A stretch of DNA of 64,000 nucleotides from Torpedo marmorata (lineage: Eukaryota). The position numbers and the translations under genes were made by a program. The DNA is taken from NCBI GenBank assembly GCA_977017645.1, contig OZ360219.1, positions 57,598,001-57,662,000 of the forward strand, read 5' to 3'. Below, piece by piece: positions 36,942-63,700 of the stretch. Below the pieces are notes generated by a model that had not been told where the DNA came from, did no database searches, and saw only the letters and a program-made list of their open reading frames with translations. Within the stretch, counting starts at the first letter, position 1; each line of letters opens with the position of its first letter.

Positions 36942-37216
36942 TCCCCAAAAGCACTACAGAAGTATTTTCACTGGAGATTTAAAAATAGTGGCTCATGAGC
37001 ATTTTCTTAAGGCAGTAATTGTTGGCCTGTTCCCCAAGAACTTTTGAAGGTGGCCATTGTCTCTGAAGCATACAGGAGTGGGGTGATCATATTCGCCCAG
37101 TGGACACAAGCTTAGTTCAGGAAAAAGGCTGCAATTTTTAACACTCTTTACTTCAGACAGCCAAAGGCTGCAATGATACAATGGAGTCAGTGGTGAATTA
37201 TATCATTGATATCTGC

Positions 37217-37629: not shown

Positions 37630-37855
37630 TTTAGTCCAAGAATTAGGATTATTGACTCGGTAGTCAATAAAATGGACTATTGACTCGTTAATCAATAGAA
37701 GACTATTTAGTCAAAGAATTTGGATTATTGACTCGTTAGTCAATAAAATGGACTATTGGCTCGTTAGTCAATAGAAGACTATTTAGTCAAAGAATTAGGA
37801 TTATTGACTGGTTAGTCAATAAAATGGACTATTGACTCGTTAGTCAATAGAAGAC
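37630..37855 (+). repeat. Three tandem 76-bp units, each with two hairpins, at the PBS position of the BEL element
   Basis: Units start at 37630, 37706 and 37782; each contains ttattgact-N4-agtcaataa and ctattgact-N4-agtcaatag (two units carry a single mismatch). Confidence 0.92.
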
Positions 37856-38173
37856 GGAATTGAAGACATAGAAAGTTGGAAATTGGATTTGGAAAGGAAG
37901 ACTAGATCGAATGGGCTCTGTTTAGAGCAGATCGATAAAGGAGGCACAAACATCAACAACACCAAGACCATTGAAGAAGCGGTAAGCCCTATTGGAAGTT
38001 CCTTCTGTGTGTTTATTACAATTTAGAACACAGTTTGGTGCAATTGCCTCTTGTCCTATGAGGACTGTTTTGGTTTTGGAGAGGTTGTTGTGCATGTTTG
38101 GTGTCTGAGTGTGACGATTGACTGAATGGAGGAAGCAGCAGCTGTAGCTGCTAAGGAACTATGTGTCGAGTAA

Positions 38174-41100: not shown

Positions 41101-41183
41101 ATGACCAAAAACCTTCAAAAGAATATAAACAGTTCTTAGAAAATCTTGCTGACGAAAATAAATCAAGAGCATCTAACCAGTAA
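38174..41183 (+). pseudogene. BEL gag-protease, disrupted by stops and frameshifts
   Basis: SAP-like N-terminus, LPKREIP.F.GDPL.F motif, three Cys/His knuckles (CLFC...H....C, CFGC...GH....C, CDIC...H...LH), protease FLDPGS, T.LGWTI.GP; 60-bp coding repeats at about 38978-39240. Confidence 0.88.
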
Positions 41184-41218
41184 AGAAGAAATTGTTTTCA
41201 TCAAAAGTGGATGAAAAT

Positions 41219-44200
41219 CTTTATTCCCAAGTATTTAATTCCTTCTTTTGACCATTTAAATTGTGTAATTTCTTTACATTTACTATAATCCCCTTGCGTT
41301 AATGCCATAATTTCACTTTTATCAGAATTAATCTTATATCCAGATATTTCCCCATATTCTCTCAATAAAGCAGACAATTGTACTAAAGAAGTAATAGGTT
41401 TTGTCATATATATCAATACATCATCTGCAAATAAACTAATTTTATGCTCTTCCGTTCCAACTTTAATACCTACAATTTTAACATCTTGTCTAACTAATTC
41501 TGCCAAAGGTTCTATCACAAAAGTAAACAAAGCTGGTGACAAAGGACATCCTTGTCTAGTAGATCTAGTCAGAGGAAATCTTGAAGAAATTTGTCCATTT
41601 GTAACTACTTTAGCAGATGGTTCTTTATATATAGTTTTAATCCAATTAATAAATATAGTTCCAAAACCAAATTTCTCCAATACCTTAAATAAAAAATTCC
41701 ACTCTAATCTATCAAAAGCCTTTTCAGCATCTAACGTTAATACTAATGGTAAATCTTCCTTCTTTTTATGCACGTTAATTAAACTAATTAATCTAGCTAT
41801 ATTATCTTTTGAATATCTATTTTTAATAAAACCAGCTTGATCTACATGAATTAAGTCTGGTAGATAATTAGCCATTCTATTTGCTAAAATTTTTGCCATT
41901 ATCTTATAATCTACATTTAGCAATGAAATAGGTCTGTATGATTCTGTTTTCAACACGTCTCTATCTTTTTTAGGTATAACTGTAATTATTGCATTCGAAA
42001 ATGTATCCGGTAATGAATGAGTTTCCGTAATTTGTTTCAATACATTCATATACGGAGGTATCAATAAATCTTTAAACTCCTTATAAAATTCTGATGGAAA
42101 ACCATCTTCCCATGGAGATTTACCACTCGTTAAAGAAGTAAGAACCTCTTTAACTTCCCTCATTGAGAAAGGCGAATCCAAAAAATCTTTATTTTGAGTA
42201 TTTAATTTAGGTAATTTAATTTTAGATAAAAATCTATTAATTTTAGAGTCATCTTGATCAATCTGAGATTTATATAAATTCAAATAATAATCTTTAAATG
42301 AATCATTTATTTCTCGAGGTTTATACGTTATTTCCCTAGAATTCTTTTTTTTTTACAGCATTTATAGTTCTAGAAGTTCGATCTTTCTTTAATTGCCATG
42401 CCAACGCTTTATGTGCTCTTTCTCCTAATTCATAATATCTTTGTTTAGTTTTTTCAATTAATTTTTCCATTTTATATGTTTGTAATAAATTATAATGCAA
42501 TTTTTTTCCAACTAAGTTATTCCTTTTTTGATCTGATCTGTTTTTTTGCAAATCTTTCTCCAAATATTCAATCTCCTTATAATTTATATAATTTATATAA
42601 ATTAAATTATTTACCATTGTTTATGAAAATTAAAAAAGATTTAGAGAGTTGGAAGGATTTACCTATAACTTTAATGGGAAGGGTAAATTGTATTAAAATA
42701 AATGTTTTTCCAAGAATTCAATATCTCTTTCAATCAATTCTTTATGAAATTCCTCAAAAATTTTTTAAAGATCTAAATTCAATTATTAGGAAGTTTTTAT
42801 GGAAAGGAAAGTTGGCAAGGGTAGGTATAGAAAAATTAACTTGGAATTATGAAATGGGTGGTTTGCAACTTCCTAATTTTCAAAATTATTATAAAGTAGC
42901 TCAATTAAAATTTGTTAATCAACTTTTTGATTTAACTAAATCTTCCGCTTGGATTAGAATAGAATTAAATAATATAGGAGAAGATTCTAAAGAAGAAGTT
43001 ATTTATAAATGGAATTCTAAATTAATTTTTTGAAGAGGTGACTAGGAATGTGGATGAGGGTAGCGCGGTGGATGTTGTCTATATGGATTTCAGTAAGGCC
43101 TTCGATAAGGTACCACATGGAAGGTTAGTTAGGAAGGTGCAGTCTTTAGGTATAAATTTTGAGATAGTCAAATGGATTGAACATTGGCTGAAAGGGAGAG
43201 GCCAGAGAGTGGTAGTGGATAATTGTCTGTCAGGTTGGAGGCCGGTGACCAGTGGTGTGCCTCAGGGATCTGTATTGGGCCCATTGTTGTTCGTTATATA
43301 CATTAATGATCTAGATGATGGGGTGGTGAACTGGATTAGTAAATATGCAGACGATACTAAGACAGGTGGAATAGTGGATAATGAAGAAGGTTTTCAAGGA
43401 TTGCAGAGGGATTTGGGCTGCTTAGAAAAGTGGGCTGAAAAATGGCAAATGGAGTTTAATGCTGATAAGTATGAGGTGCTTCATTTTGGTAAGAAGAATC
43501 AGAACAGGACATACCTAGTAAATGGGAGAGCATTGATGAATACAGAAGAGCAGAAAGATTTAGGAATAACGGTGCATCGTTCCCTGAAGGTAGAAACTCA
43601 TGTGAATAGGGTGGTGAAGAAGGCTTTTAGTATGCTGGCCTTTATCAATCATTGCATAGAATATAGGAGTTGGGAAGTGATGTTGAGATTATATAAGGCG
43701 TTGGTGCAGCCTAGTTTAGAGTTCTGTGTGCAGTTCTGGTCGCCAAATTATAGGAAGGATATCAACAGAGTGGAGAGAGTGCAGAGAAGATTTACCAGAA
43801 TGTTACCTGGGTTTAAGCATCTAGAGTACAAGGAGAGATTGAGCAGATTAGGTCTTTATTCATTGGAGCGTAGAAGGTTGAGAGGGGATTTGATAGAGGT
43901 ATTTAAGATTATGAAAGGGATAGACAGAGTGGATGTGGATAGACTATTTCCGTTAAGAGTAGGAGCGATTGAAACAAGAGGACATGAGTTAAGAGTTAAG
44001 GGGCAGAGGTTTAGAGGTAACATGAGGGGGAACTTCTTTACTCAGAGAGTGGTAGCGGTGTGGAATGAGCTTCCGGGAGAAGTCGTGGCGGCAGAGTCAA
44101 TTTTATTATTTAAGAAAAAGTTGGACAGGTATATGGATGAGAAGGAAGTGGAGGGTTATGGGCAGGGTGCAGGTAGGTGGGACTAGAGAGGAGTGTTTGG

Positions 44201-45573
44201 TTCGGTGCGGACTAGAAGGGCCTAATGGCCTGTTTCCGTGCTGTAATTGTTATATGGTTATATATGGTTATATGGTTAATATCAACAAGAAGGAAAAATT
44301 CTCCTATCCTTAAACATTTGCTAGAAATATGGAACAAAACGGATAAGGAAATAGGAGGAAAAGGATCGATTTCTCCAAAGATGCCTTTATATAAAAATGA
44401 ACTTATTCCATTTACTATTAATAATCAATTATTTAAAATTTGGTTTCAAAAAGGAATGAAGAAAATAAATGACTGTTTTGAAGCTGGGAAATTTATTACT
44501 TTTCAAAGAATGAAAGATAAATTTAATATATTGGACAATACACTTTTTGCTTATTATCAAAGTAGAGCATTTTTGGTTGGGAAATTAGGTTATAGTTTGA
44601 TTTTACCAAGACAGAATGAATTAGAATTATTAGTTACTAAGGGAGATGTAAATAAATTTATTTCTCACATGTATAGATCGTTTCAGAGAAAAATTCCTAA
44701 AGTAGGAATTCATAAATCAAGATTAAATTGGGAATTAGATTTGAATGTAACAATAGATGAAAATCATTGGAAAGAATTATGTAAATTAAGTATGACGAAG
44801 GTTATTAATGTTAGATATAGATTAGTACAATACAATTTTTTTCATCAATTATATTTAACACCTAAAAAATTAAAGAAATTCAATCCGACATTATCAGGTT
44901 TATGTTTTAGATGTAATAAAGAGAAAGGTTCTTTCATACATTCTACATGGTTTTGTCCAAAAGTTTATGATTTTTGGTTGAAATTTAAAAATTTTCTAGA
45001 CAAAGTATTAAAAATTACATTTCCAATGGATCCTATGATATTTCTGTTTGGAGATATCAAAAAAGTTAGTAATAAGATGAAATTAAATATGTATCAAATA
45101 GAATTTTTGCGAATTGCTTTAGCTGTTTCAAAGAAATGTATTGCTATTACTTGGAAATCTGATGTAGATTTAAGGTTAGAAAGATGGCATGCAGAACTTC
45201 GTTCATGTATACCGCTTGAAAAAATTACTTACAATTTACGTAATAAGTATCACTTCTTTTTAAAAATTTGGAGCCCATATATGAAAGTTGTCGGTTTAAG
45301 GATCTGAAGATCTCTGGACATCGGATCTACTGGCGAACCTAACCTTCATAATAGAATTAGTTTATTGATGTATTTTTTAGATTGACATTCTCCTTACTCT
45401 ATCTTTTTCTTTCTTTTTTATTTTATTTTTATTTTATTAGATTAGTAGGGTTGGGAGGGTTAGGGAGGGGAGGGTGGGAGGGGGGGTGAAAATGTATCAC
45501 AAGTATTTTGATAATTTTATATTTTATCTTATGTATTTTGTGATTTAAAATTTTAAATAAAATATTTTTTTTA
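41219..45573 (+). mobile_element. L1 with 5' inversion (41219 to ~42580 inverted, ~42589-45573 sense), itself interrupted by a CR1
   Basis: 16-bp TSD aaaagtggatgaaaat (41203-41218, 45574-45589); minus-strand RT ends KYLGIKI and the plus strand resumes NLYKLNY. Confidence 0.93.
43027..44278 (+). mobile_element. 5'-truncated young CR1 LINE inserted in L1 ORF2
   Basis: Open 382-aa RT fragment (YADD), (ttatatgg)n tail; L1 flanks rejoin as KWNSKLI|STRRKNS. Confidence 0.95.
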
Positions 45574-45991
45574 AAAAGTGGATGAAAATGAAGTATTAGA
45601 AGATGCTGCAAATACTGCTGGTGATTATTCCTGCTAAGCTAAATCTGGGGAAGGAATGAAACAAATGTTTGGGAACAAACCTGAAAGTAGCTTTTGTAGC
45701 CCAGATGCACCAGCAAACAAGATCAATGAAGAAATCTTGCAGTATGTTTTAAAATGGGCGAACACAGAAAATTGCGCTGATGGTATAAAGGAGCATTTCA
45801 TTGACAATATGGTGCAACTGCCTTCAAAGTACAAAATGTTGAAGAAGGACTTAGAAATATTGGATATTCCAGAAAACAGTGACCCAAAGGGTTTTAACTT
45901 TGCACTTGGAAACAAAACTGATTTTCAGAAAAATGGGAACGAATCTGATGATTCTTCAGTTTTGAAAGTAACCAAGAGAGAAGTTCAGAGA

Positions 45992-46311
45992 GCAGTTGAC
46001 AAGAATGGAGAATTAATTGTAAATAGAATTCGTAAAACCAAGCGGAAGAAAAGAATAACTACTAAAGAAATGAATGCAGTTATTGAAGAAAGGGATTTAG
46101 CCTTATCAAGATGCACACAGTTGAAAGAGGAGATTCATTTTTTGAAAGAGAACAAGTCATTGTTTAATGACACAAGCCAACTGACTATGGAAAACAATCA
46201 AGAATGTACCTTGAAAACCCAATTAATAACGATGCAGAAAGAAATAAATATTACATTTCAGCAATGTAAGAAGCAAGGTGAAAAAACTCAAACATCTCGA
46301 GTATACTACAG
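45992..46311 (+). pseudogene. MIPOL1: Captured intronless MIPOL1-like fragment inside the BEL element
   Basis: KNGELIVNRIRKTK..RIT.KEMNAVIEERDLALSRC..L..E...LT.ENNQE..LK..L..MQ...QQ.KK....QT.RVYY aligns with recalled MIPOL1 (KNGAIIVDRIYKTK..RITAEEMSALIEERDAALSKC...LTAENNQERALK...QTLRVYY). Confidence 0.8.
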
Positions 46312-46683
46312 AAGGGCTGAAAGCAGAGGTACCAATGCATCAAATCAAATAACCTTTTTACTCCAAGTCAAGTTACTAACTTCTCAGAAGATAACAGGAA
46401 AATTACTTTCCTATTGAAAGAATTAAATGAAGAGAGAGAATCTAATAAAAGACTTCAAGATAAATTGTCAGAAAATGAGACTGGATTTTACAGTTGCGTT
46501 GAAGGAGTGTCGGAGGAGGAGGAGGAGCGACTGGTGACTGGAGCTTGGTGAGTTAATTGGTGATTTTAAAAGGGCGTGGAGGGCAAAGGGTTAGGTTAAG
46601 TGTTGATCAGTCGTAGTGAGAAATTGGGTATTTGTGTTAATTAGCAGTGACCTATAACAGGAGGGGAAGCTGAGGGAGCGCCC

Positions 46684-46841
46684 AGGGAGTGAGTGGCATA
46701 GGGAGTGAGTGGCATAGGGAGTGAGTGGCATAGGGAGTGAGTGGCATAGGGAAGGAGTGGCATAGGGAAGGAGTGGCATAGGGAAGGAGTGGCATAGGGA
46801 AGGAGTGGCATAGGCAAGGAGTAGCATAGGCAAGGAGTGGC
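46684..46841 (+). repeat. 16-bp minisatellite in the CR1 5' UTR
   Basis: About 10 units: agggagtgagtggcat x4, agggaaggagtggcat x4, then aggcaagg variants. Confidence 0.9.
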
Positions 46842-49015
46842 GGTAGAGTTTCGAGGCTTTGGCTGCAGAGGCTGAGAAAGAGCTTGCTTGCTCTCAGAGA
46901 GGTACGGTTTGTTAGTTTATTACTCTAACTAAATGTTTATATATATATATATATAATGGAGGCAGCTAGGGCAGTGGATCGCTCCACTTGTGGGATGTGG
47001 GAAATCTGGGACAGCTTACTTGTCCCTAATGACTACACCTGCAAAAGGTCCATCCAGCTACAGCTGCTTACAACCCGAGTTAGGGAACTGGAGCTGGAGT
47101 TGGATGAATTGCGGATCTTGAGGGAGGCAGAGCAGTGGTAGACAGGAGTTCGAGGGAGGCAGTCACCGCTAAAATTCAGGAGGCAGGCAGTGGGTGACTG
47201 TAAGGAGAGGGAAATGGAAGGTACATAGAGTGCAGAGTACCCCTGTGGTCATGTCTCCAGCACAGAAGCTGGCCCCCTGGCTCAGAAAGGAAGGGGGGAG
47301 AAGAGGAGAGCGATAGTGATAGGGGACTCATTGGTTAGAAAAGTAGATAGGTGGTTCTGTGGACGAGATCGAGGCTCCAGGATGGTATGTTGCCTCCCAG
47401 GTGCCAGGGTCAGGGATGTCTCTGATTGAGTTCATCGGATTCTAAAGGGGGAGGGTGAGCAGCCGGATGTCGTGGTCCACGTGAGGACCAATGACATACA
47501 TAGGAGTAGGGAAGAGGTCCTGAAGAGAAAATACAGGGAGTTAGGAAAGAAGTTAAAAAGCAGGACCTCAAGGGCGGTATTCTCAGGATTGCTGCCTGTG
47601 CCACGCGCCAGAGAGGGTAGTAATAAGAAGTTATGGCAAATGAATGCGTGGTTGAAGAGTGGGAAGGTCTGACCTCTATAAAAGGGACGGGCTGCACCTG
47701 AACTGGAGAGGGACCAATGGCAGGTTTGCTAGAGCTGTTGGGGTGGGTTTAAACTAGTCTGGCTGGGGGGTGGGAATCAAAATATGGGTGTGAAGATTAG
47801 GGTAGAAGGGAACCAGGGTGTTAAGGTCAAGACAGAGGAATATATAAAAAAGTCAAAAATATTGTTCAGCAAAAATAACAACAAGGACAGGCAGGTGAAA
47901 AGAGAGGGTAATTTGCAGGGCAATAGAAATACAGCAAAATCGCTGACAGATACTGGTCTAAGTGTGCTGAACTTAAATGCACGGAACATTAGAAATAAAG
48001 TAGATGACCTTGATGTGCAGCTACAGATTAAAAGTTATGACATTGTGGCCATCACTGAGACATGTCTTAATGATGGATGTGATTGGGAGCTGAATGTCCA
48101 AGGGTACACAGTGATAGGCAGGTAGGTAGAGAGGGTGGCGTGGCCCTGATGGTAAGCAATGATATTAAATCACTAGAAAGGAGGGACATAGGGTCAGATG
48201 TGGTAGAATCCTTATGGGTTGAGTTAAGAAATGGTAAGGGTAAAAGGACTCTATTAGCAGTTATATACAGGCCCCAAAACAGCAGCTGGGAAGTGGAATA
48301 TGAGTTACAGATGGAAATAGAAAAAACAGTGTCAGAAGGAAAATGTCAAAATAATTATGGGGGATTTTAACATGAAAGGAGATTGGGAGAGTCAGGAAGG
48401 TACTGGATTGCAGGAGAGAGAGTTTGTAGAATGCCTAAGGGATGGCTTTTTGGAACAGCTTGTCGATAATCCCACCAGGGGATCGGCGATTTTGGATTGG
48501 GTGATGTGTAATGAACCTGAGGTAATTAGGGAATTAAGGGTATTGGAGCCCTTAGGAAGTAGTGATCACAATATGATTGAGTTCAGTTTCAAATTTGAAA
48601 AGGGAAAGCTGAGATCAGGTGTGTCAATATTTCAGTGGAACAAAGGAAATTACAGTGGTATGAGAGAAGAACTGGCCCAGGTTGACTGGAAAAGTAAACT
48701 AGATGAAGGGACGGCAGAGCAAAATAGGATGATATTTCTACAAGAAATAAAGAAAGTGCAGGATAAATATATTCCAAGAAAAAAGAAAATTATGAATGGA
48801 AAAATTGCACAAATGTGGATTACTAGAGAGGTTAAGACTAAAATAAAAGCAAAAGATAGGGCATACAAAGAAGCAAAAACTAGTGGAAAAACAGAGGACT
48901 GGGAAACTTTTTAAAAACTTACAGAAAGAGACAAAGAAAGTCGAGATGAATTATGAAAGGAGGTTGGCAAATAATATACAAAAGGATACTGAGTTTTTTC
49001 AAATATATAAAGAGT

Positions 49016-52000
49016 GGGGGAGTGGCGTGATGGCGTAGGTTGGAGATGTGAAAACACACCTCTCCCTACAGAACTAATTAAAACCTGAAAAAAATACTTA
49101 TTTAGTTATTAAAAAAAAAGTTAAGTTGTTTATTAATGATTGAAGAATGACCACTAGAAAAACGAAGGAGCAAAAGTTAAAGAAAACAGTGTTTAAAGAA
49201 AGTATAATTCAAGAGGAAGATCGGCCTACCTTAACGATGGAGCCCCGGGATCAGGTTCCTCTCCCCCCGAGGAAGATGCAGACAAGGACGGTGAAGGTAA
49301 CTGCAGCACCAGTGCCATCCTCCCGAGGAGCTGGGGAAGATGGCGCTGGTGCTCGAAGAAAGACTAAGAAACTACAATTCCCGAAGAAGCGACTGCGCAT
49401 GCGCGAAATTGAAAGCTTATTTAAGAGGTCAAATAATAAGTTATTCAGCAAAAATTAAGAAGGAATATATTCAGGAATTGGATAATTTGGAGAAGGAGAT
49501 TGAGTTTTTGGAGAAGGATTTGCAAAAAAAGAGATCAGAAGAAAAGAGGAAAAACTTAATTGAGAAAAAAATTATATTATAACACGTTACAAACATATAA
49601 AATGGAAAAATTAATTGAAAGAACTAAGCAAAGATATTATGAATTGGGAGAAAGAGCTCATAAAGTCTTAGCCTGGCAATTAAAGAAAGAACAAACCTCT
49701 AGAACTATAATGGCTATAAAAAGGAATTCTAAGAAAATAACATAAACCGCGAGAAATAAATGATTCTTTTTTTTTATTTTTTTTTAAATATTTTATTTAA
49801 ATTTTTAAATCACACATTACATAAAATAGTTTTGCATATAATTCTTAAAAAATACATGTGATTACATTTTCTCCCCCCCACTTCCCACCCTCCCCTCCCT
49901 AACCCCTATATCCCCCTAATCTAAATTTAAAATAAAATAAAATAAAATAATAAAAGAAAAAAGAAAAAAAGGTAGAAAAATAGAATGAGGAGTTGATAAG
50001 CTTAAAAACTAATATATCTTAGAGGTTATTTCGCCAGCGGATCTGATATCCAGAGAGTTTACAATGTTAAACCCATAATCCTCATATATGGGCCCCAAAT
50101 TTTCAAAAAGAAATGATATTTATTTCGTAAATTATAAGTAATTTTTTCTAATGGTATACATGATCGTAACTCTGCATGCCATCGCTCTAAATTTAAATCA
50201 ACATCCGATTTCCAAGTAATAGCTATACATTTTTTTGAAACTGCTAATACTATACGTAAAAATTCTACTTGATACATATTTAATCTATGTCTAATACTAA
50301 ATTTTTTTATGTCTCCAAATAAAAATAACATAGGATCCATTGCAATTTCAACATTAAAAATTCTTTCTAAAAAATTCTTAACTTTCAACCAAAAATCTTG
50401 AATTTTTGGACATGACCATGTACAATGTACAAAAGATCCTATTTCAGTTTTACATCTAAAACACATATCTGATAACGCTGGATTAAATTTCTTCAATTTT
50501 TTAGGTGTCAAATACAATTGATGAAAAAAGTTATATTGTACTAATCTATATCTCACATTAATGACTTTTGTCATACTTAATTTACATAAATCTTTCCAAT
50601 GATTTTCATCTATATTAACATTCAAATCTAATTCCCATTTCAATCTAGACTTATGCACTCCTACTTTAAACATCTTTCTTTGAAACAACTTATACATTTG
50701 TGATATAAATTTATTAACATTGACTTTAGTAATTAATAATTCCAATTCATTTTGTCTTGGTACTGTTAATTCATTCCCTAATCTCTCAATCAAAAAAGCT
50801 TTAACTTGAAAATAAACTAACATTGTATTATCTAATATATTAAATTTTTCTTTTAACCTCTGGAAAGTGATAAATCTACCTGCTTCAAAACAATCTTTTA
50901 AAGTCTTAATTCCCTTTAAAAACCATAACTTAAGTAACTGATTATCCATAGAAAATGGTAAAAGCGGATTCTGATGTATTGGTGTATTTAAAGAAATTAA
51001 TCCTTTTTGACCTATCTCTTTGTCTACTTGTGACCAAATTTCCAACAAATGTTTAATAATTGGTGTATTTTTCTTTTTAAGTAATAATAATTTAGAATTC
51101 CATTTATAAATAATATCTTCTTTATGTATTTCTCCCATATTATTCAATTCTATATTAATCCAAGCAGAAGATTTATTTAAATCAAAGAATTCATTAATAA
51201 ATTTTAATTGAGCCACTTTATAATAATACTGAAAATTGGGGAGTTGTAACCCTCCCATCTCATAATTCCATGTTAATTTATCTATACTTACTCTTGCCAA
51301 CTTTCCTTTCCATAAAAATTTCCTAATAATAAATTTTAAATCTTTAAAAAATTTATTTGGAATACCATAAGGAATCGATTGAAAAAGATATTGAATTCTT
51401 GGAAAAACATTCATTTTAATACAATTTACTCTTCCCATCAAAGTTATAGGTAAATCTTTCCAAAGCTCTAAGTCCTTTTTTATTTTCATAAATAAAGGAA
51501 TATAATTTAATTTATACAAATTCTCTAATTTTGTGTCAATTTTAACTCCCAAATATTTAATACTTTCTGTGGTCCATTTAAAGTCCGTAACTTCTTTACA
51601 TCTAGTATAATCCCCTTGAGATAAAGCCAAAATCTCACTTTTATCTGAATTAATTTTATATCCTGATATCTCACCATATTCTATCAATATAGTAGCCAAT
51701 TGCTGAAGTGATGTAACAGATTTCGTCATATATATTAATACATCATCTGCAAATAGACTAATCTTATGTTCTTCCCTACCCACTTTTATTCCCATTATAT
51801 TTATATCTTCTCTATCATTTCTGCTAAAGGTTCTATTACCAAGACAAACAAAGCAGGTGACAAAGGACATCCCTGTCGTGTTGATCTTGACAACAAAAAT
51901 TTTTGCGATATTTGTCCATTTGTAACTACTTTAGCCGTAGGTTCCTTATATATAGTTTTAATCCAATTTATAAAATTATCTCCAAATCCAAATTTTTCCA

Positions 52001-55000
52001 TAACTTTAAATAAAAAATTCCACTCTACTCTATCAAATGCCTTCTCTGCATCTAATGTTACCACCAATGGTAAATCTTGTTTCTTCTTATGTATATTAAT
52101 CAAACTTATCAATCTAGCTATATTATCTTTCGATATCTATTTTTAATAAATCCAGCTTGATCCGAATGTATTAAATCTGGTAAGTACTTAGCTAATCTAT
52201 TTGCTAAAATTTTTGCCATTATTTTATAATCCACATTTAGTAATGAAATAGGCCTATAAGACTCAGTTTTCAACACATCTCTATCTTTCTTTGGTATAAC
52301 CGTAATTATAGCATTTAAAAATGTCTTCGGTAATAAATGAGTTTCAGTAACTTGATTCAATACCTCCATATATAAAGGTATCAGTAAATCTTTAAATTCT
52401 TTATAAAATTCTACTGGAAACCCATCATCCCCCGGAGATTTGCCACTTTTCAACGTCGATATTGCGTCAATAACTTCTCTCATCGTAAAAGGTAAATCCA
52501 AAGAATATTTACTTTGAACATTCAATTTAGGTAAAGTAATTCTAGATAGAAATCTATTAATCTTCATATCATCATGGTCAATCTCAGATCTATATAAACT
52601 CTGATAATATTCTTTAAAAGATTCATTTATTTCTTGTGGCTTATAAGTTATTTCTCCAGCATTTCTCTTCCTTATAGCATTAATAGTTTTAGAAACTTGT
52701 TCTTTTTTTAATTGCCATGACAAAACTTTATGTGCCTTTTCCCCTAATTCATAATATCTTTGTTTTGTTCTCGTTATCAACTTTTCAGTCTTACGTGTTT
52801 GCAATAAATTATAATGTAATTTCTTCCTTACTAAACGATTCCTCTTAAGAATAGACTTATTTCTCTGTAAATCCTTTTCCATAAACTCAATTTCCTTCTC
52901 TAGTTTTTCCTCTTCTTTCAAATAATCTTTTTTTATCTTTACTGAATAACTTATTATTAAACCTCTTAAATAAGCTTTCAAAGCTTCCCATACCATAAAT
53001 TTATCATTAACCGAATTATTATTTATTCTTAAAAATTCCTGAATTTCTCGTCTCATATATTCACAAAAGTCCTTTCTTTTCAATAAGGAGGAATCAAATC
53101 TCCAATTATATACAGTTTTTTCCTTCTCTGGAATTATACATGTCATTAATAAAGGTGAATGATCTGAAATTAATCTTGCTTTATAAGATATCTGTGTTAT
53201 TCTATCCTGAATTTGCGAAGATAATAAAAACAAATCTATCCTAGAAAAAGAATTATGTCTAAATGAATAAAATGAATAATCTTTCTCTCTCGGTTTCAAC
53301 TTTCTCCAAATATCCACCAAATTCAAATCCTCCATCAAATTAATTATCTTTTTGACTATTTTTGGTCTAGCAGATGTTTTCGAAGTTTTATCCATAATTG
53401 GATTTAAACAACAATTAAAATCTCCACCAATTAAAATATTCTCTTTAGCATCTGATAGATGTAAAAAGGCATCTTGAATAAATTGTTCATCATCAGGATT
53501 TGACACATATAAATTCATAAGAGTCCAAAATTCTGAATAAATTTGACAATATATCAAAACATATCTTCCTGCCGTATCAATCACTGTCGATTGTATCTTA
53601 AAAGGTAACTTCTTATTTACTAAAATAGCTACTCCTCTAGCCTTAGAATTAAATGACGACGCTATAACATGTCCTACCCAATCTCTTTTCAATTTTTGAT
53701 GTTCAATATCTTTCAAGTGAGTTTCTTGTAAAAAAGCTATGTCTACTTTCAACTTTTTAATATATGCCAAAGTTCGTTTAAATAAATGATTCTTTCAAGG
53801 ACTTTTATTTAAATTTATATAAATCTCAAACTGATAAAGATGATTCTAAAATTAATGAATTTTTATCCAAAATTAAGATGCCGAGGTTAAATATTCATAG
53901 TAAAGAATTTTTAGATACACCATTAACGATGAGAGAAGTTAATGAGGTTCTTAGTTCTTTAACTAGTGGAAACTCACTGGGGGAGGATGGTTTCCCATCA
54001 GAATTTTATAAGGAATTTAAGGATTTATTGATACCTCCTTATATGGAGGTGTTAAAACAAATAACGGAAACTCATTCTCTACCGGAAACTTTTTCAAATG
54101 CAATAATAACAGTTATATCTAAAAAAGATAGAGATTTGTTGAAAACAGAATCATATAGACCAATTTCGTTGCTAAATGTGGACTATAAGATAATGGCGAA
54201 AATTTTAGCAAATAGAGTGGCTAAATATTTACCAGATTTAATTCATGTAGATCAAGCAGGTTTTATTAAGAACAGATATTCAAAAGATAATATAGCCAGA
54301 TTAATTAGTTTAATAAATGTGGCGCAAAAGAGAGAGGAATTCGCGTTAGTATTAACATTAGATGCCAAAAAGGCTTTTGATAGATTAGAGTGGAATTATT
54401 TATTTAAGGTACTGGAAAAATTTGGTTTTGGAACTACATTTATTAATTGGATTAAAACTATATATAAAGAACCATCTGCTAGAGTGGTCACAAATGGACA
54501 AATTTTTTCAAAATTTTCTTTGACTAGGTCAACCAGACAAGGATGTCCTTCGTCGCCAGCATTGTTTATTTTAGCAATAGAACCTTTAGCAGAATTAATT
54601 AGACAGGATATTAAGATTGCAGGTATTAAAGTTGGTAATGAAGAGCATAAAATCAGTTTATTTGCAGATGACGTATTGATTTATATGACAAAACCTATTA
54701 CTTCTTTAATGCAATTGACTGTTTTATTGAGAGAATATGGGGAAATATCTGGTTATAAGATTAATTCTGATAAAAGTCAAATTATGGCATTAACACAAGG
54801 GGATTATAGTAAATGTAAAGAAATTACACAATTTAAGTGGTCAAAGGAAGGAATTAAATATTTGGGAATAAAGATTGATACAAAATTAACTAATCTATAT
54901 AAATTAAATTATCTATCATTATTTATGAATATTAAAAAGGATTTAGAAAGTTGGAAGGATATACCTATAACTTTAATGGGAAGGGTAAACTGTATTAAAA

Positions 55001-56610
55001 TGAATGTTTTTCAGAGAATTCAATATCTTTTTCAATTAATTCCTTATGAAATCCCTCAAAAATTCTTTAAAGATTTAAATTTAATTATTAGGAAATTCTT
55101 GTGGAAAGGAAAGTTGGCTAGAGTAGGTATGGAGAAATTAACTTGGAATTATGAAATAGGTGGTTTACAACTTCCTAATTTTCAATATTATTATAAAGCA
55201 GCCCAATTAAAATTTATTAATGAAATGTTTGATTTAGGAAAATCTTCTGCTTGGATTAGAATAGAATTAAATAATATAGGAGAAGATTTGAAAGAAGTTA
55301 TTTATAAATGGAATTCTAAATTATTATTAACAAGATGGAAAAATTCTCCTATTTTTAGACATTTGTTAGAAATATGGAATAGAGTGGATAGAGAAATAGG
55401 AGCGAAAGGGTCATTTTATCGAAAAATGCCTCTGTATCAAAATAAACTTATTCCATTTACTGTTCATAATCAATTATTTAAAATTTAGTTCCAAAAGGGA
55501 ATTAAGAAAATAAATGATTGTTTTGAAGCTAGTAAATTTATTACTTTTCAAAGAATGAAAGATAAGTTTAATGTATCAAATAATACACTTTTTGCTTATT
55601 ATCAAATTAGAGCATTTTTAGTTGAAAGGTTGGGCTATAGTTTGATTTTACCAAGACAGAGTGAATTGGAATTATTAGTTACTAATGGAGGTGTAAATAA
55701 ATTTATTTCTCAAATGTATAGATTGTTACAGAGGAAAATGCCTAAACTAGGAATTCATAAATCAAGATTAAATTGGGAATCAGATTTGAATGTAACAATA
55801 GATGAAGAACATTGGAAAGAATTATGTAAACAAAGTATGACGAAGATTATTAATGTTAGATATAGATTAGTGCAATATAATTTTTTTCATCAATTATATT
55901 TAACACCTAAAATATTAAAGAAATTTAATCTGACATTATCTGGTTTATGTTTTAGATGTAATAGAGAGGAAGGTTCTTTTGTACATTCTACATGGTTTTG
56001 TCCAAAAGTATATGATTTTTGGTTGAAAGTTAAAAAGTTTTTAGATAAAGTATTAAGAATTGCACTCCCAATGGATCCTATGATATTTTTGTTTGGAGAT
56101 ATTAAAAGAATTAGTGTTAAGATGAAATTAAATATGTATCAAATAGAATTTTTACGTATTGCTTTAGCTGTTTCTAAGAAATGCATTGCTATTACATGGA
56201 AATCTGATGTAGATTTAGGGTTAGAAAGATGGCATGCAGAACTTCGTTCAGCTATACCACTTGAAAAAATTACTTATAATTTACGTAATAAATATAATTT
56301 CTTTTTGAAAATATGGAGCCCATATATAAAAACTGTTGGTTTAAGGATTTGAAGATCTCCGGATATTGGATCTGACTGGCGAACCTGTGTTCCACAATAA
56401 AATTTGTTTATAGTTGTTCTTTTTAGAGTGACATTCTCCTTACTTTATCTTTTTCTTCTTCTTTCTTTCTTTCTTTTCGGGAGGGTTAGGGAGGGGAGGG
56501 AGGTAGGGAGGGAGGGAGGGTGGGTGAAAATGTATCACATGTAATTTGATAATTTTGCATTTTAAACTATGTACTCTGTGATTTAAAAATTTTAAATAAA
56601 ATATTTAAAA
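49016..56610 (+). mobile_element. L1 with intact 5' end and a large internal deletion, interrupted by an antisense L1
   Basis: Starts gggggagtggcgtgatggcg; putative ORF1 start at 49147; jumps to ORF2 (KAYLRGQIISY) at about 49408; TSD atatataaagagt at 49003-49015 and 56620-56632. Confidence 0.88.
49770..53779 (-). mobile_element. L1, nearly complete ORF2 (endonuclease, RT, Cys-rich domain) with two frameshifts
   Basis: LQETH, GGDFN, RID, SDH, FADD, CFRC; poly(A) at about 49770-49790; 16-bp TSD aaataaatgattcttt (49754-49769, 53780-53795). Confidence 0.95.
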
Positions 56611-58628
56611 AATATATATATATATAAAGAGTAAAAGAGAGACAAGGGTAGATATAGGACCAATTGAAAATGATGCTGGAGGAATTATAATGGGTAACCA
56701 AGAGATGGCAGAGGAACTAAATGAGTATTTTGCGTCAGTCTTCACTGAGGAAGACAATAGGAATATACCTGATATTCAGAGGATGCAGGGAATAGAATTA
56801 AGTACAGTTAGGATTACTAGGGAGATAGTGCTTGGAAAGCTGATTGGACTAAAGATAGATAAGTCTCCTGGACCGGATGAGGTGCCCCCACGGGTTCTGG
56901 CTTTGGAGATTGTGGAGGCATTGGAAATGATTTTTCAGAAATCAATAGACTCCGGCATGATTCCGGAGGATTGGAAGGTCGCAAATGTAGTTCCGCTGTT
57001 TAAGAAAGGAGGGAGGCAGAAAAAAGGAAATTAGAGGCCTATTAGTCTGACATCAGTAGTTGGTAAGATTTTGGAGTCGATCCTCAAGGACGAGGTTATG
57101 AAATACCTCGAGGTGAATGACATGATAGGTCCAAGCCAGCATGGTTTCATGAAGGGAAGATCCTGCCTGACCAACCTATTGGATTTTTTGAGGAGATATC
57201 AGGTAGGATGGACAAGGGAGAGGCTGTGGATGTTGTGTATTTGGATTTTCAAAAGGCCTTCGATAAGGTGCCGCATAAGAGGCTGCTTAATAAGATGAGA
57301 GCTCATGGAATTACAGGAAAGATATTAGATTGGGTGGAGCATTGGCTGATAGGCAGGAAGCAAAGGGTGGGAATAAAGGGATCCTGTTCTGGTTGGTTGC
57401 CGGTTACTAGTGGTGTTCCGCAAGGCTCGGTGTTGGGTCCGCTTCTTTTTACAATGTATATAGATGATTTAGATTACGGATTGAATGGTTTTGTGGCTAA
57501 GTTTGCGGATGACACCAAGATAGGTGGTGGAGTAGAAAGTGTTGAAGAAATCAAAAGGTTGCAGAGAGAAACCTGGACAGCTTAGGAGAGTGGGCAAAGA
57601 AATGGCAGATGAGATATAATGTTGAGAAATGCACGGTTGTACATTTTGGAAGAGGAAGTAACAGACAGATTATTATTTGGATGGGGAGAAAATTCAAAAT
57701 TTGGAAGTGCAAAGGGACTTGGGGGTCCTCGTGCAGGATAACCTAAAGGTTAACCACTAGGTTGGGTCGGCAGTAAAGAAAGAGAATGCTACGTTGGCAT
57801 TCATTTCAAGTGGAATAATGTATAAGAGTAAAGAGGTGTTGATGAGGCTCTATGGGGCACTGGTGAGACCTCATTTGGAGTACTGTGTGCAGTTTTGGGC
57901 CCCTTATCTTAGAAGGGATGTAATAATGTTGGAGAGAGTGCAGAGAAGATTTACCAGGATCATTCCTGGAATGCAGTGGCTAACATATGAGGAACGTTTA
58001 GCGGCTCTTGGACTGTATTCTTTGGAGTATAGAAGAATGAGAGGGGATCTCATAGGAACATTTCAAATACTGAAAGGATTGGACAGAGTAAATGGAAATA
58101 AGATGTTTCCCTTGGTGGGTGAATCCAGGACAAGAGGGCACAGTCTTAGAATTAGAGGGTACCCATTTCGAACAGAGATGAGGAGGAATTTCTTCAGCCA
58201 GAGGGTCGTGGATTTGTGGAATTCGTTGCCACATACAGCTGTGGGAGGCCTGATCTTTGGGGGATTTTAAGGAGGAGATTGATAGGTATCTGATTGGTCA
58301 GGGTATAAAGGGATATGGGGAAAAGGCCGGAAATTGGAATTAGATGTGAGAACAGTTTAGCTCGGTGGAGTTGCAGAACAGACTCGATTGGCCGAATGGC
58401 CTAGTTCTGTTCCTTTAACTTGTGATCTTTGAATTGGAAGCTGCAAAATTGGATCCAGAATTACAGGAAAAGACAATAGAAGCCAGAGTGGCTGTTGATG
58501 AGTTTGAGGAACCAATGTCGTTTGAGTCCTACCTTTTCTATAACCAACCACAGAAGAGAAAGAAAAAGATGAACAAGCCTGTTGTTGTGAAGGTTAAATA
58601 GACTCGTCAATTGGAATCAAGAGTATCA

Positions 58629-58706
58629 GATGTCACACTTGACCAACCAATGTTGGATGAAGAAGCTGCGCAAGAGGTAATAAATCGTATCCAAAGCTTC
58701 AGAAAA
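58629..58706 (+). pseudogene. Short IARS1 (isoleucyl-tRNA synthetase)-like fragment inside the BEL element
   Basis: DVTLDQPMLDEEAAQEVINRIQSFRK resembles recalled IARS1 DVTPDQSMVDEGMAREVINRIQKLRK; only 26 codons. Confidence 0.6.
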
Positions 58707-58994
58707 AGAAAAAGAGAAAAAGGCCCATCTTGTGCCCTCAAGAACGTGAATACCTTGGAAATTAAGAATCATGTTCAAGCACTGGATAAGGCCGGGGCAA
58801 ACTTGCAAGCAGATTAAGACTAAATATGGCTTTATGAACAGACCAATGACCAAATCTGTCTTTTACAAGAAGCAGAAAGCTTTCATGATTGACTTTCACT
58901 TTCTTTTGAATATTTACCCGATGTATTACTATGTTTGATTTTTTCTTTGTAATGGTAATTATTATTTTTAGATATAATAATTAGGGGCCGGTAT

Positions 58995-59407
58995 TGTAAG
59001 GGTTAAAATGACTTGCAAACATATTTTTTGCAAGAAACTAACCTGCGAATATTGTTTACAAATTCTTTGAGTGTCTCCATCGTAACAGTCTTCGAGTCAA
59101 GGTTATAGCTGGTTTTTTGACCATTTTAGAGAGATTGTTTAATTTTGAGTTTTGCTTTTGTACTATTTAGAACCAGTGGAACATGGATACAGTCCAGATA
59201 ATTCTTTGACCGTTCTTTTGAACGTATTAACGTTTTATTGTCTGTTTTAAGTATATTTTAATTGTTTTATCAAATTTCTTAACGTATAAAGTTCTAATAA
59301 ACAGTGAAAAACTCAATGCTACTTTGGAATGGACTTTTCATTTAACAAGTCAAAACAACTGCGTCTCCATGTTGTCCAAGCGATTATAAAGGAAAATAGT
59401 CGCAATA
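58995..59407 (+). repeat. 3' LTR of BEL element
   Basis: Direct repeat of 37217-37629, preceded by PPT-like ttaggggccggta. Confidence 0.93.
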
Positions 59408-59876
59408 TCTGCTTTCAGTGTAGGATGGCTCCTGAGATACCTTCCAAGATTTTCTTCTGGTCCTTGGCTGTTGGTGGTCAGTTTTGTGCAGCAGGAGCAA
59501 GCTCCTGAAGGATATTTGTCTTCTGGGTGGTTAGTATCAGATCCACTGTCACATAAACTTTAGTAAAGAAGCCAACAATATCTTGGAGCTTGACCTCCAA
59601 ATATGTGCATGCACAAGCATAATTTGAGTATTGCAACTTGATGACCTTGGCTCAGGAGTGAAGCTGACAAAGGTTGAAGAGTTTCCTATTTATCTTGCAG
59701 GCTGCCATCCCCCCAGCATGAAACCTTTTGGAGCTGAGATGTGGCAATGAGATGAGAAAAGTAGAGAGCAGTGTTAGAGCAATGAGACGATCTTGCTGGA
59801 TTCGAGACTGCACTGAGATTTGGTCAGCTGTAAACCTGCAAGTTAGAGTCCTGCCATCAGATAGCAGGTGTTGAAT

Positions 59877-60300: not shown

Positions 60301-60721
60301 AGAAGTTCAAAAATGCTATAATGTATTGATCCTTCACTGTGCTTTTTTCTTGGAATGAGCCTGGCAGTGAAGATCTGTGCTGCAATCAAATGTAATGTTA
60401 TGAAGTGTGGGATGTGGAGTCAGGGCAACTGCTAGCCTGGATTGTCCTGGCCTCCTGATTGATTCCTTCCCCACGTTTGTCATTCGCCATTCCCGTCCTA
60501 ATTACACTGTACACCAAGCTTTGTCGTGGATGTCCTCAAAATATCCTGGAAAAATTGTAACATCCTCTCTAACTTATAGCGATTCCTGGTCCATGACTGG
60601 AATAGAACCATCTGAAATGGCACTGTGTGTCTTTGTCAGGAGCAGACACAAGCTTGACAAAAATGGCAGAAGGGTTGACGTAGGCAGGGAGGGAGATTTA
60701 AAAACAGTAAGGAAACCTTAC

Positions 60722-63700
60722 TGATATGCCTATCAATTAGCACTCAAGAGACTATGAGAGGGTTAACGTACCATAGGCTTTAATATACATAAAACAGACC
60801 TGCAGTGGACCTACAGATCTCCCGGACTGAGGGCGGAGCCCTAGCACACAAGCCTTTATTCAAGAGAGAAAAGGGGAGGGATTACCTGGAGACCCAAAGG
60901 AGGGGAGAGGAGTCGTCGGGACAGACAGCAGTACATACAATACACAAACAGTGGTTTACCACATTCACCCCTCCTTTTAAAAGAGTCCAGCGGGGTGGAG
61001 TGGCCACAATACAATCTCAAAGTATTTACAGTCATAATCTACAGGTCAAGGCGATCCGGTGGTTTGGCTCGCCTCTGTGACCTGCGCAGTACCCTGGGTG
61101 CGGGTTGTGGTGCAGGGGGTACCCTGGGTGCGGGTTGTGGTGCAGGGGAAGATGGCAAGGCCGTCGGCTCCTCCTGTGGTGCTGGGTGAGATGGCAGGAT
61201 TGTGGGTTCCATCGCGGGTGCCTGGTCTGACGTTGTAGAAGAGGGACTAGGGAGGGGCCGCAGCGAGTGGTCTTGCCCATCGAGAGGTTCCTCCGGCGCT
61301 CCCGCGGGCGCCAGGTCCCGAATTGAGACCGTGTCCTCTCTCCCATCCGGGAAGACCACGTAGGCGTACTGCGGGTTAGCGTGCGCTAACTGCACCCTCT
61401 GGACCGCGGGCTCATATTTGCTGCTCCGGAGGTGGTTGCGGAGCAGCACCGGCCCCGGAGACGTCAGCCAGGCAGGCAGGGCGGTCCCGGTGTTCGACCT
61501 CCTGGAGAAGGAGAAAAATCTCTCATGAGGCGTTACATTTGTGGCTGTGCACAGTAAGGACCGTATCGAATGGAGGGCTTCGGGGAGAACATCTTGCCAG
61601 CGGGAAACCGGCAGTCCCCTGGACTTGAGAGCCAGGAGCGCCGCCTTCCAGACAGTGGCGTTCTCCCTTTCCACCTGTCCATTACCTCGGGGGTTGTATG
61701 CGGTGGTCCTACTAGTGGCGATGCCCCGGGTCAGCAGGAACTGGCGCAGCTCCTCACTCATAAAAGCTGATCCCCGGTCGCTATGAATGTAGTTCGGGAA
61801 GCCGAACAGCGTAAATACCTGGCGAAGGGCTTTTATGGTTGAGGCAGCCGAAGTGTCGGGGCAGGGAATGGCGAAGGGGAACCGCGAGTACTCGTCAATA
61901 ATGTTCAGAAAATACACATTGCGGTTCGTGGAGGGAAGGGGACCCTTGAAGTCAATGCTGAGACGTTCAAAGGGGCGAGTGGCTTTGATCAGCTGTGCCT
62001 TGTCGGGGCGGTAAAACTGGGGTTTGCACTCCGCGCAAACCCGGCAACTGCTGATCATTGTCCTGACCTCTTCCAGGGAGTATGGCAGGTTCTGTGACTT
62101 CACGAAGTGAAAGAGCCTGGTAATTCCTGGGTGGCATAGGTCGTTATGTAGGGCGTGTAATCGGTCGACCTGCGCGCTAGCGCACGATCCCCGGGATAGA
62201 GCATCGGAGGGCTCATTGAGCTTCCCGGGCCGGTACATGATGTCGTAATTGTAGGTGGAGAGCTCTATTCTCCACCTCATGATCTTGTCATTTTTGATCT
62301 TACCCCGCTGCTGATTGTTGAACATGAATGCCACAGAGCGTTGATCTGTCAGCAGGGTAAAATGCTTACCGGCGAGATAGTGCCTCCAGTGCCTGATGGC
62401 CTCCACTATGGCCTGGGCTTCCTTCTCCACCGCTGAGTGCCGAATTTCGGGGCCCTGTAGGGTTCGGGAGAAAAATGCCACCGGCCTTCCCGCCTGGTTG
62501 AGGGTAGCAGCCAGCGCGAAGTCCGATGCGTCACTCTCCACCTGGAAGGGTGTCTCCTCATCCACTGCGTGCATTGTTGCTCGCGCAATGTCCCCTTTTA
62601 TAAGGTCGAACGCCTTACGTGCCTCCGAAGCAAGGGGAAATGCAGTGGATTTCACAAGGGGTCGGGCCTTATCCGCATAATTTGGGACCCATTGGGCATA
62701 ATAAGAAAAGAACCCGAGGCATCGTTTAAGGGCTCTGGGATTGGCGGGGAGCGGAAGTTCCAGCAGGGGCCGCATGCGTTCGGGGTCTGGTCCAATTACC
62801 CCGTTCTCGACCACATACCCCAAAATAGCGAGGCGAGTGGTACCAAACACGCATTTTTCTTTGTTATACGTGAGGTTTAGAGCTTTTGCCGCCTGCAGGA
62901 ACTTCCGGAGGTTGTTGTCATGGTCCTGACGATCATAACCACAGATGGTAATGTCGTCAAGGTATGGGAAAGTGGCTTTAAGTTTGTAATGGTCCACAAT
63001 CCTGTCCATCTCCCGCTGAAAAACAGAAACACCATTAGTAACACCAAATGGAAGGCGCAAGAATTGGAACAGCCTGCCATCTGCCTCGAACGCGGTGTAT
63101 GAGCGGTCCTCCCGACGGATAGGGAGCTGGTGATATGCCGATTTCAAGTCGATGGTGGAAAAGAGGCGGTATTGGGCAATTTGGTTCACCATCTCCGCTA
63201 TCCGTGGTAGCGGGTATGCATCTAGAAGCGTAAACCTGTTAATGGTTTGGCTGTAGTCCACCACCATTCTGTTCTTGGCCCCTTTTACAATGACCACCTG
63301 GGCTCTCCAGGGACTATTGCTCATCTCTATAATCCCTTCCTGTTGCAACCTTTGTACCTCCGTCTTGATGAATGCTCTGTCCTCGGTACTGTAACGCCTG
63401 CTTTTAGTTGCCACAGGCCTACAGTCCGGGGTCAGGTTCGCAAACAACGACGGAGGCGAGATCTTAAGGGTAGAAAGACCACAGGTGGTTTCGGGCGTGC
63501 TATCCAGAAACTGGTGGTTGGCTACAGTGATCGCGGGGAGAGGACCGTCATACCGCATTGTAACGCTCTGCAAATGGCTCTGAAAATCCAAACCCAGTAA
63601 TACCGGCGCACACAAACGGTTCATCACAAACAAGGAAAATTGTCTGTACTCTGCCCCTTGTACCACAATGTTCGCCACACACGCCCCCCGGATGTCGGTT

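Follow-up and report, generated by a model that had tools for sequence, protein, structure and literature searches.

The window analysed here, 64,000 nt of the Torpedo marmorata assembly GCA_977017645.1 (contig OZ360219.1, positions 57,598,001-57,662,000, forward strand), contains a non-autonomous BEL/Pao LTR element, here in a decayed copy, in which spliced host RNA of about 1.35 kb has taken the place of pol. Pieces of BRCA1, MIPOL1, Elongin A, IARS1 and NDC80 follow each other in this order, all in frame behind gag-protease and, like the other features given below unless stated otherwise, on the forward strand. The element is bounded by the 5-bp target-site duplication TCTGC (37212-37216 and 59408-59412) and by a 5' LTR of 413 nt (37217-37629) and a 3' LTR (58995-59407), which are identical at 383 of 413 positions. 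The LTRs end in TG...TA and not TG...CA, as they also do in the four W subfamily copies checked (4/4) and in the sampled copy L140. A decayed BEL gag with approximate limits (38170-40480) is followed by an aspartic protease and the start of the BEL pre-RT linker (40480-41138). Three Cys-His knuckles of gag sit in the frame 39918-41183, and a FLDPGS motif is present in the protease. The Pfam match of PF13650 to the protease region is weak (E 4e-4, under the cut-off) and the gag piece of the window alone found no Pfam match; PF03564 is detected in the sister copy L113.

Two later insertions interrupt the cargo. The first is an L1-type element with an inverted 5' part (41219-45589, no strand assigned), in which a CR1 is nested at about 43033-44263. 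It is flanked by a 16-bp duplication (41203-41218 and 45574-45589), in agreement with the sequence-only reading of this stretch, and uninterrupted copies elsewhere show its empty site. The second is a CR1 with nested L1-type elements (46488-58429). Its duplication is likely the 6-nt TGAATT/TGGATT (46482-46487 and 58430-58435) instead of the ttgaa proposed earlier, and positions 46488-46503, formerly counted as cargo, are CR1 sequence. Downstream of the cargo, the BEL tail (58806-58994) comprises the last integrase codons, the 3' UTR and a purine tract, and is identical at 177 of 189 positions to that of the full-pol partner L035. A three-knuckle gag (with DUF1759 in the sister copy L113), the adjoining protease, and the LTR pair with its 5-bp duplication mark the element as a BEL/Pao derivative. 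It is not an autonomous element, as RT, RNase H (Peptidase_A17), integrase and DUF5641 are absent between protease and tail; the lack of the three enzymes had been correctly noted before.

The cargo begins with a BRCA1 splice junction, at which the end of one exon meets the first part of the large exon (41139-41218, with a frameshift near 41173) and continues with the BRCA1 large exon (45590-45992), which is identical to the host exon at 331 of 394 positions and contains a stop at 45635. MIPOL1 follows with part of exon F and exons G and H, spliced (45988-46311, 108 codons), then with exon B and part of exon C (46312-46487, with a frameshift near 46340) and, beyond the CR1, with the remainder of exon C (58430-58494). 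An Elongin A fragment corresponding to about residues 385-434 of P0093 (58488-58631) is interrupted by a stop at 58599. IARS1 is represented by parts of two exons, spliced but separated by an A-rich insert (58628-58740), and NDC80 by the end of a downstream exon (about 31 nt) followed directly by the first part of an upstream one (58736-58808). The 253-aa ORF reported from 45656 exists, yet is a mere remnant between the stop at 45635 and the frameshift near 46340, with its last 24 or so codons outside the family frame. Likewise, the proposed rejoining FYSCVE/LEAAKLDPEL across the CR1 holds for the frame, which is continuous across the insertion site in the family, but not for the residues, which read SENETE-LEAAK in uninterrupted copies.

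Four of the five host genes could be placed in the Torpedo genome, at unlinked loci (BRCA1 on C61, MIPOL1 on C40, IARS1 on C22 and NDC80 on C78). Elongin A is known by protein match, and its host gene ELOA was not located in the Torpedo genome. A locus at C1:100.50 Mb considered as host IARS1 was rejected, as it is another copy of the element. The host exons confirm the MIPOL1 piece, for which 107 codons had been claimed, and the IARS1 piece, for which 26 had been claimed and which comprises 27 (58628-58708). A Pfam search with the cargo gave no match, and the window's 259-aa frame likewise matched nothing in a word-index protein search, in which a natural uninterrupted copy did give matches. 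Taken by itself, the IARS1 piece of the window gave no significant PDB match (E 0.75); its identity was settled by longer sister copies together with the host exon.

The host exons of MIPOL1, BRCA1, IARS1 and NDC80 appear spliced in the element, and between the two LTRs spliced host RNA thus takes up part of what was the internal ORF. Capture at the DNA level was rejected because the introns are missing, and a single genomic source or a BEL accessory region was rejected in view of the four unlinked loci. The mosaic of several unrelated transcripts suggested by the sequence-only reading is real and far beyond chance. The joins between the pieces carry microhomologies of 2-7 nt (AG, 2 nt with the present-day host sequence, GTGGCTG, AGAT and CCTCAG), the microsimilarity at fusion points that such a capture was predicted to leave. 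In longer copies, 33 nt stand between MIPOL1 exon D and ELOA.

Two of the joins reverse the order of exons in the host. At 46311/46312, the donor of MIPOL1 exon H (TACTACAG/gt, C40:64385712) is joined to the acceptor of exon B (TAG/CAGGGCT, C40:64591881), which lies 206 kb upstream of exon H in the host, and this exact junction is found in 78 of 79 copies. At 58766/58767, a downstream NDC80 exon (donor C78:10919601, human residues 411-448+) is joined to an upstream one (acceptor C78:10907662, human residues 293-391). The NDC80 junction is exact in 20 of the 21 copies that carry it; the exact form is present in 14/20 W copies and 6/6 Z copies. Both reversed junctions are exact at donor and acceptor, and the captured MIPOL1 and NDC80 sequence lies wholly within what the implied circles span and is limited to their exons. 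MIPOL1 exon E and the 5' part of the downstream NDC80 exon are missing from the element. Across the contiguous 394.5 kb examined on C40 each MIPOL1 exon is single-copy, and a present-day tandem duplication was rejected on this ground; for NDC80, a duplicate of the upstream exon was sought up to 15 kb beyond the donor. We interpret this pattern as an indication that the MIPOL1 and NDC80 pieces were likely copied from circular RNAs.

The window copy belongs to a family of roughly 70,000 copies (35,000-124,000, an estimate from copy density), which may constitute a few per cent of the 6.2-Gb genome and which falls into at least four subfamilies, among them W, D, Y and Z. In all 19 other copies fetched the cargo is contiguous and free of both nested inserts, and in most of them gag-protease precedes the cargo and the 3' LTR comes after it. 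Dispersed copies come with LTR pairs of their own, whose two members are 88-100% alike wherever a clean pair was available, as expected after further retrotransposition as a non-autonomous element; L140 has identical LTRs and a stop-free frame of 1,337 codons. Gag and protease, as well as the BRCA1, MIPOL1 and ELOA pieces, are kept in all four subfamilies. The short pieces of the window are deletion remnants of longer captures retained by sister subfamilies, and a TACC piece occurs in a sister family. The size of the family, the two back-spliced pieces and the origin of the short pieces by deletion had escaped the sequence-only reading. The partner L035, assigned to BEL/Pao by Pao-specific Pfam hits, possesses RVT_1, Peptidase_A17, integrase and DUF5641, and has the same tail as the window element.

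The junctions are in frame in most copies (pre-RT to BRCA1 47/52, BRCA1 to MIPOL1 75/77, MIPOL1 to ELOA 69/72, ELOA to IARS1 14/15), which bears out the earlier claim that the frame is mostly kept. In subfamily W the IARS1 part runs briefly in another frame, after which the NDC80 frame is restored. The cargo frame stops at 58815 in the window, and from the frame end to the 3' LTR there are about 180 nt in the window and 417 nt in L140. Shared stops number 0 in W, where 6.4 are expected (P 0.001), and 0 in D, where 8.1 are expected (P 0.0002); if only 60% of the differences are counted, the expectations fall to 3.9 and 5.1 (P 0.018 and 0.003). Shared indels are multiples of 3 except for one edge case, an apparent 1-nt deletion in D at the alignment edge, and the frames agree across this join in 30 of 30 copies. 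The net dN/dS of the cargo between subfamilies is 0.78-1.14, every interval spanning 1, versus 0.30-0.41 in the protease, a value to which exchanges with autonomous partners may have contributed. The intervals are wide (0.40-2.43), and weak protein-level selection on the cargo may therefore be compatible with them.

Our preferred reading, to which we give a probability of roughly 0.6, is that of a non-autonomous BEL/Pao element in which five in-frame host pieces took the place of pol, two of them from circular RNAs, and in which the frame is kept for escape from nonsense-mediated decay. In this joint explanation selection acts on the open frame and not on the protein, because dN/dS is close to 1, shared stops are lacking and the frame is kept across the junctions. 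Host mRNAs and circles would have been co-packaged in particles, where template switching by the partner's reverse transcriptase likely copied the circular RNAs into the element. Assembly was presumably stepwise, with BRCA1, MIPOL1 and ELOA first, IARS1 likely gained afterwards by recombination with a sister family, NDC80 added later, and in-frame deletions following; the element would be mobilised in trans. The amino acids appear to drift while the open frame persists, likely sparing the element RNA from decay. None of the listed holders of the family sequence is on record as RNA, and contigs that span cargo joins in a run presumed to be RNA (X12) are not used as evidence. In Copia elements, a long 3' UTR downstream of gag has been considered a risk of nonsense-mediated decay (PMC5580714). 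Decay avoidance by itself leaves unexplained why the cargo was not wholly deleted.

In a rival view the captures are the same, but the open frame serves translation-coupled cis packaging, or Gag-protease processing for which a C-terminal extension would be required irrespective of its sequence. Its frame-only signature would be identical, gag and protease are present in all four subfamilies, and the cargo of W and D shrinks yet stays. Present data do not separate it from decay avoidance, but the stops cluster by the 3' LTR and keep no constant distance from the protease, therefore decay avoidance fits better, and we regard the packaging or processing role as unlikely. A role of the cargo as a functional protein part, with coiled-coil or disordered pieces of spindle, kinetochore and repair proteins (NDC80, MIPOL1, BRCA1 and, in the sister family, TACC) steering Gag in the germ cell or acting as a decoy under loose sequence demands, would agree with the persistence of the BRCA1, MIPOL1 and ELOA pieces, with the stop-free fusion of L140 and with the coiled-coil nature of several source proteins. 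Set against this are the net dN/dS of about 1 in both tested pieces, the loss of different cargo parts in different subfamilies, and the Elongin A domain PF06881, which stops after 55 of 105 positions in the cargo and is gone from W and D; this role thus appears very improbable.

The circular templates and the selected frame can likewise be questioned. The shape of a template is not readable from a DNA copy, and the reversed exons could stem from linear RNAs, by trans-splicing or a lost tandem intragenic duplication, or from chance template switches at exon ends; other routes to non-colinear junctions are noted in PMC4897178, and MIPOL1 exon H ends in AG, as does the intron preceding exon B. 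We consider such origins distinctly unlikely, although a shade less so than a protein function, as donor and acceptor are exact in two unrelated genes, the MIPOL1 exons are unduplicated in the stretch examined, none of the exons outside the circles is seen, and a single random switch would fall on both boundaries with a chance of about 1e-4 by rough arithmetic. That the open frame is a passive, unselected by-product is hardly credible. Back-splices of equal-phase exons are automatically in frame (as in a circle of 780 nt), and Y alone is not significant in the stop test (P 0.09), but W and D pooled have 0 shared stops against 14.5 expected, only 14 of 64 private indels are in frame in contrast to the shared ones, and more than 10 independent joins and deletions kept the frame. 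With the frame protected and the protein sequence not, the preferred reading of decay avoidance would make the family a natural experiment on RNA surveillance of transposons.

More tentatively, with somewhat less than an even chance, the family may exemplify "filler-ORF" LTR parasites, which gave up their enzymes and replaced them with host coding RNA of any kind. Only an unbroken frame to the 3' end would be selected, stable in-frame circles would be over-represented, and such elements, still active, could reach several per cent of a vertebrate genome and hold a readable fossil record of germ-line circles that were packaged in particles of the retrotransposon. In practice, tens of thousands of BRCA1, MIPOL1, ELOA, IARS1 and NDC80 fragments mean trouble for gene annotation, for the mapping of reads and for circRNA calls in these rays. 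In the open literature we found no report of the family, nor of two circles and five genes combined at such scale with frame-only selection. The main text of a shark and ray genome-size preprint lacks BEL, Pao and LTR as whole words, and its supplements could list such repeats.

Gene capture by LTR elements and retrocopies of circRNAs are already known. With autonomous BEL/Pao elements (Belpaoviridae) the ray element shares LTRs, the 5-bp duplication, a three-knuckle gag, the protease and the DUF5641 integrase-end tail, but it lacks RT, RNase H and integrase. Maize Bs1, a non-autonomous LTR element that combines parts of three host genes in a hybrid open frame (PMC13317346, PMC5131818), is a plant element proposed as a functional chimeric gene, whereas the ray family displays neutral amino-acid drift and two back-spliced pieces. 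The LTR-mediated retrocopies of Tan et al. 2016 (PMC5131818) likewise are partial mRNAs between LTRs, with microsimilarity and further retrotransposition. Among them are BEL18_AG, a BEL retrocopy of mosquito, and the mouse "Super" retrocopy with its four genes, a precedent that the sequence-only reading understated. Those retrocopies are described at single or few loci, in a main text without the word "circular", in contrast to five genes in one frame, a few per cent of the genome and frame-only selection in the ray. Closest to the reversed junctions are the circRNA pseudogenes of Dong et al. 2016 (PMC4897178), with 33 circRFWD2-derived copies in mouse, which share the non-colinear exon-exon junction, the restriction to circle exons, the LTR association and the multi-copy state. 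Their flanks are merely LTR-enriched, the mechanism is called mysterious, and the route of circular RNAs back into genomes was left open there. In the ray family, by contrast, copies are about a thousand times as numerous, the junctions lie inside complete LTR elements with template-switch microhomologies, and two circles from two genes are joined in one element in frame with gag. Two independent back-splice junctions within one complete LTR element with template-switch signatures therefore suggest retrotransposon particles as this route, which the ray family makes testable.

The window corresponds to G000:C1:57598001-57662000. The LTR element in it (37217-59407) is flanked by a 5-bp duplication, TCTGC, and its LTRs are identical at 383 of 413 positions. 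Its interior comprises a decayed gag, the protease and a tail identical at 177 of 189 positions to that of a BEL copy with full pol (L035), and is split by two later insertions, an L1 and a CR1. The target-site duplication that the sequence-only reading gave for the L1 was borne out. Its CR1 junction (FYSCVE/LE, with a ttgaa duplication) has to be revised: the sequence in uninterrupted copies is SENETE-LEAAK, which places the start of the CR1 at 46488 and rules out ttgaa as its duplication. Three 76-nt tandem repeats follow the 5' LTR (37628-37855) and a 63-nt in-frame tandem array lies in gag (38973-39287). Elsewhere, CR1 copies at 9940-11187 and 43016-44263, the latter nested in the L1 within the BEL element, are 97% alike in opposite orientation. 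Gypsy-type LTR elements occupy the minus strand at 60700-64000 and 12512-17016, of which the second is young, as its terminal pair (12512-12768 and 16760-17016; 257 nt) is 100% identical.

Continuity of the cargo was judged from natural copies and not from window pieces joined by hand. Searching the genome with 45590-46503 yielded 4,104 first-look candidates; of the 40 that were scored, 39 were other full-length places (93-95%). The cargo formed one contiguous block in 19 of 19 other copies fetched, and copy L002 can be read without interruption from where the protease region ends to a stop adjoining the tail. The family is large, with four subfamilies sampled: W (window type, L001-L020), Y (close to the host sequence), Z (L119-L124, with the longest cargo and all five genes) and D (L145-L174; 6,060 candidates). 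The short cargo pieces in the window are what in-frame deletions have left of a Z-like form. We found eight copies in 644.5 kb around the host genes and three in 34 evenly spaced 10-kb stretches; the pooled 11 in 984.5 kb correspond to about 70,000 copies (35,000-124,000), the evenly spaced sample alone to 55,000 (11,000-160,000), and a search with the MIPOL1 protein returned 57,438 first-look candidates. With full-length copies of 5.4-6.2 kb, the family is therefore estimated at a few per cent of the 6.2-Gb genome, whose MIPOL1 and Elongin A have their closest relatives in an electric ray, which suggests a ray host. Identical LTRs of 691 nt flank L140, a D copy that also shows a 5-bp duplication and reads without a stop for 1,337 codons from gag to Elongin A, so the family has moved recently. 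Subfamily D has kept the cargo but differs from the window in its LTR (691 nt against 413 nt); both LTRs end in TA, not CA. Sequencing runs under five organism labels contain 32-38% of the cargo's words, and contigs in X1, X3 and X11 span cargo joins; one of the runs may come from the source sample.

The suspected mosaic of several host genes was confirmed, with BRCA1, MIPOL1, Elongin A, IARS1 and NDC80 in this order. An origin from one contiguous locus does not apply, as host genes lie on contigs C61, C40, C22 and C78. The BRCA1 cargo is 51% identical to skate BRCA1 residues 227-385, and longer copies carry four exons of the host gene (C61), spliced. Nine nucleotides present in most copies and encoded in skate BRCA1 are absent from host BRCA1 (L105, near C61:25488540), so the capture is likely older than a deletion in the host. 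The MIPOL1 piece named in the sequence-only reading is supported by protein matches, with host exons mapped on C40. The Elongin A segment of a longer copy matches 787 proteins, those listed being elongin-A or equivalents, as well as PF06881; window positions 58488-58631 are 83-88% identical to this segment in six longer copies. The host Elongin A gene was not located in the genome. The IARS1 piece likewise stands: sister copies match human IleRS (E 9e-185), and 58628-58740 aligns over a splice with host exons on C22. In host IARS1 (L132, C22:54709908) a GC donor closes the captured exon. A longer NDC80 piece matches human residues 293-391 (E 4e-16), with the host gene on C78. Fragment joins show microhomologies (AG, GTGGCTG, AGAT, CCTCAG). 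In L081 and further copies of Y and Z, some 33 nt (11 codons, in frame) separate MIPOL1 exon D from Elongin A; they may be a sixth fragment or the end of another back-spliced exon. A sister family of non-autonomous BEL elements (L113, G000:C5:170366500-170376499; L096; L101; dozens of places) carries TACC (coiled-coil, PF05010), a short stretch of BEL RNase H and spliced IARS1 of about 500 codons. The Z IARS1 is 89-92% identical to it, which makes recombination between cargo-bearing elements likely.

The MIPOL1 cargo is permuted, residues 445-553 being followed directly by 295-370. Host exon H ends in TACTACAG/gtaagc at C40:64385712, and exon B starts 206 kb upstream of this end, at C40:64591881, after a tandem acceptor (TAG/CAGGGCT). 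The exact H-to-B join is present in 78 of 79 element copies, and in the 394.5 kb of host sequence between exon A and the final exon each MIPOL1 exon was seen once. A circle of this kind would measure 780 nt, a length divisible by 3. Copy L079 (G000:C42:9563886-9564965) contains an internal 405-nt tandem repeat in which the junction recurs three times without loss of frame. The first ~31 nt of the NDC80 piece are the 3' end of an exon that closes with ATAAAA/gtaagg (C78:10919601; human residues 411-448+), and the piece then runs into the exon starting ttcag/GATCGT (C78:10907662). Of 20 W copies, 14 have this join exactly, one is a base off and five are without it; all six Z copies have it exactly, and it is missing in all 53 Y and D copies, which have no NDC80. 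Directly before the real upstream exon lies a short local duplication of its 3' part and following intron (L180, C78:10907229-10907288). Neither cargo piece showed sequence from beyond its circle, and both were probably copied from circular templates.

Selection was assessed from pairwise distances between natural copies in the host frame (20 W, 23 Y, 30 D; four duplicate places, L079 and all Z excluded), the protease comparison resting on 15, 19 and 29 W, Y and D copies with enough cover. Net dN/dS between subfamilies came to 0.90-0.99 (BRCA1) and 0.78-1.14 (MIPOL1), with 1 inside every interval, and to 0.30-0.41 in the protease, with all intervals below 0.7. Shared stops in the cargo number zero in each of these subfamilies; neutral placement of lineage-wide differences predicts 6.4 in W (P 0.001) and 8.1 in D (P 0.0002), both gathered by DNA likeness and not by open frames, and 2.4 (P 0.09) in Y, which was gathered by protein likeness and is thus biased. 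With only 60% of these differences P becomes 0.018 (W), 0.003 (D) and 0.23 (Y). Of 64 private indels, 14 keep the frame; those that are shared measure 3, 9 or 24 nt, except one 1-nt call in D at an alignment edge. Across copies the frame is kept, with in-frame joins in 47/52, 75/77, 69/76, 69/72, 14/15 and 5/6 scorable copies along the element. At the last join the single scorable W copy is out of frame by the join test, and W translations regain the NDC80 frame after a short shift. Selection acts on the open frame only, not on the amino acids of the cargo; a true protein function of the cargo is disfavoured.

The element joins host sequence, both spliced and back-spliced, at microhomologies and in one frame, and it has a full-pol partner. 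From LTR biology and the model in PMC5131818, particles of the partner would take up host mRNAs and circles along with the element's own RNA, and reverse transcriptase would switch templates. Variants open up to the 3' end may then out-replicate others. Our best guess for their advantage is escape from nonsense-mediated decay, because a 3' UTR of 1.5-2.5 kb would follow if translation stopped behind the protease; PMC5580714 discusses the risk of long-3'-UTR decay for Copia gag RNAs. The main rival to escape from decay is that packaging is coupled to translation and itself needs the open frame.

In the main text of openly available papers we found no description of the family, none of an element with two circles and none of captured cargo under selection for its frame alone. 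Every ingredient of the ray element has precedent: circRFWD2 pseudogenes near LTRs for copies of circRNAs (PMC4897178), LTR retrocopies of several genes, among them one in a BEL element and a mouse locus with four genes (PMC5131818), and Bs1 (PMC13317346). Within its known kind, the ray element family is an unusually clear and large case.
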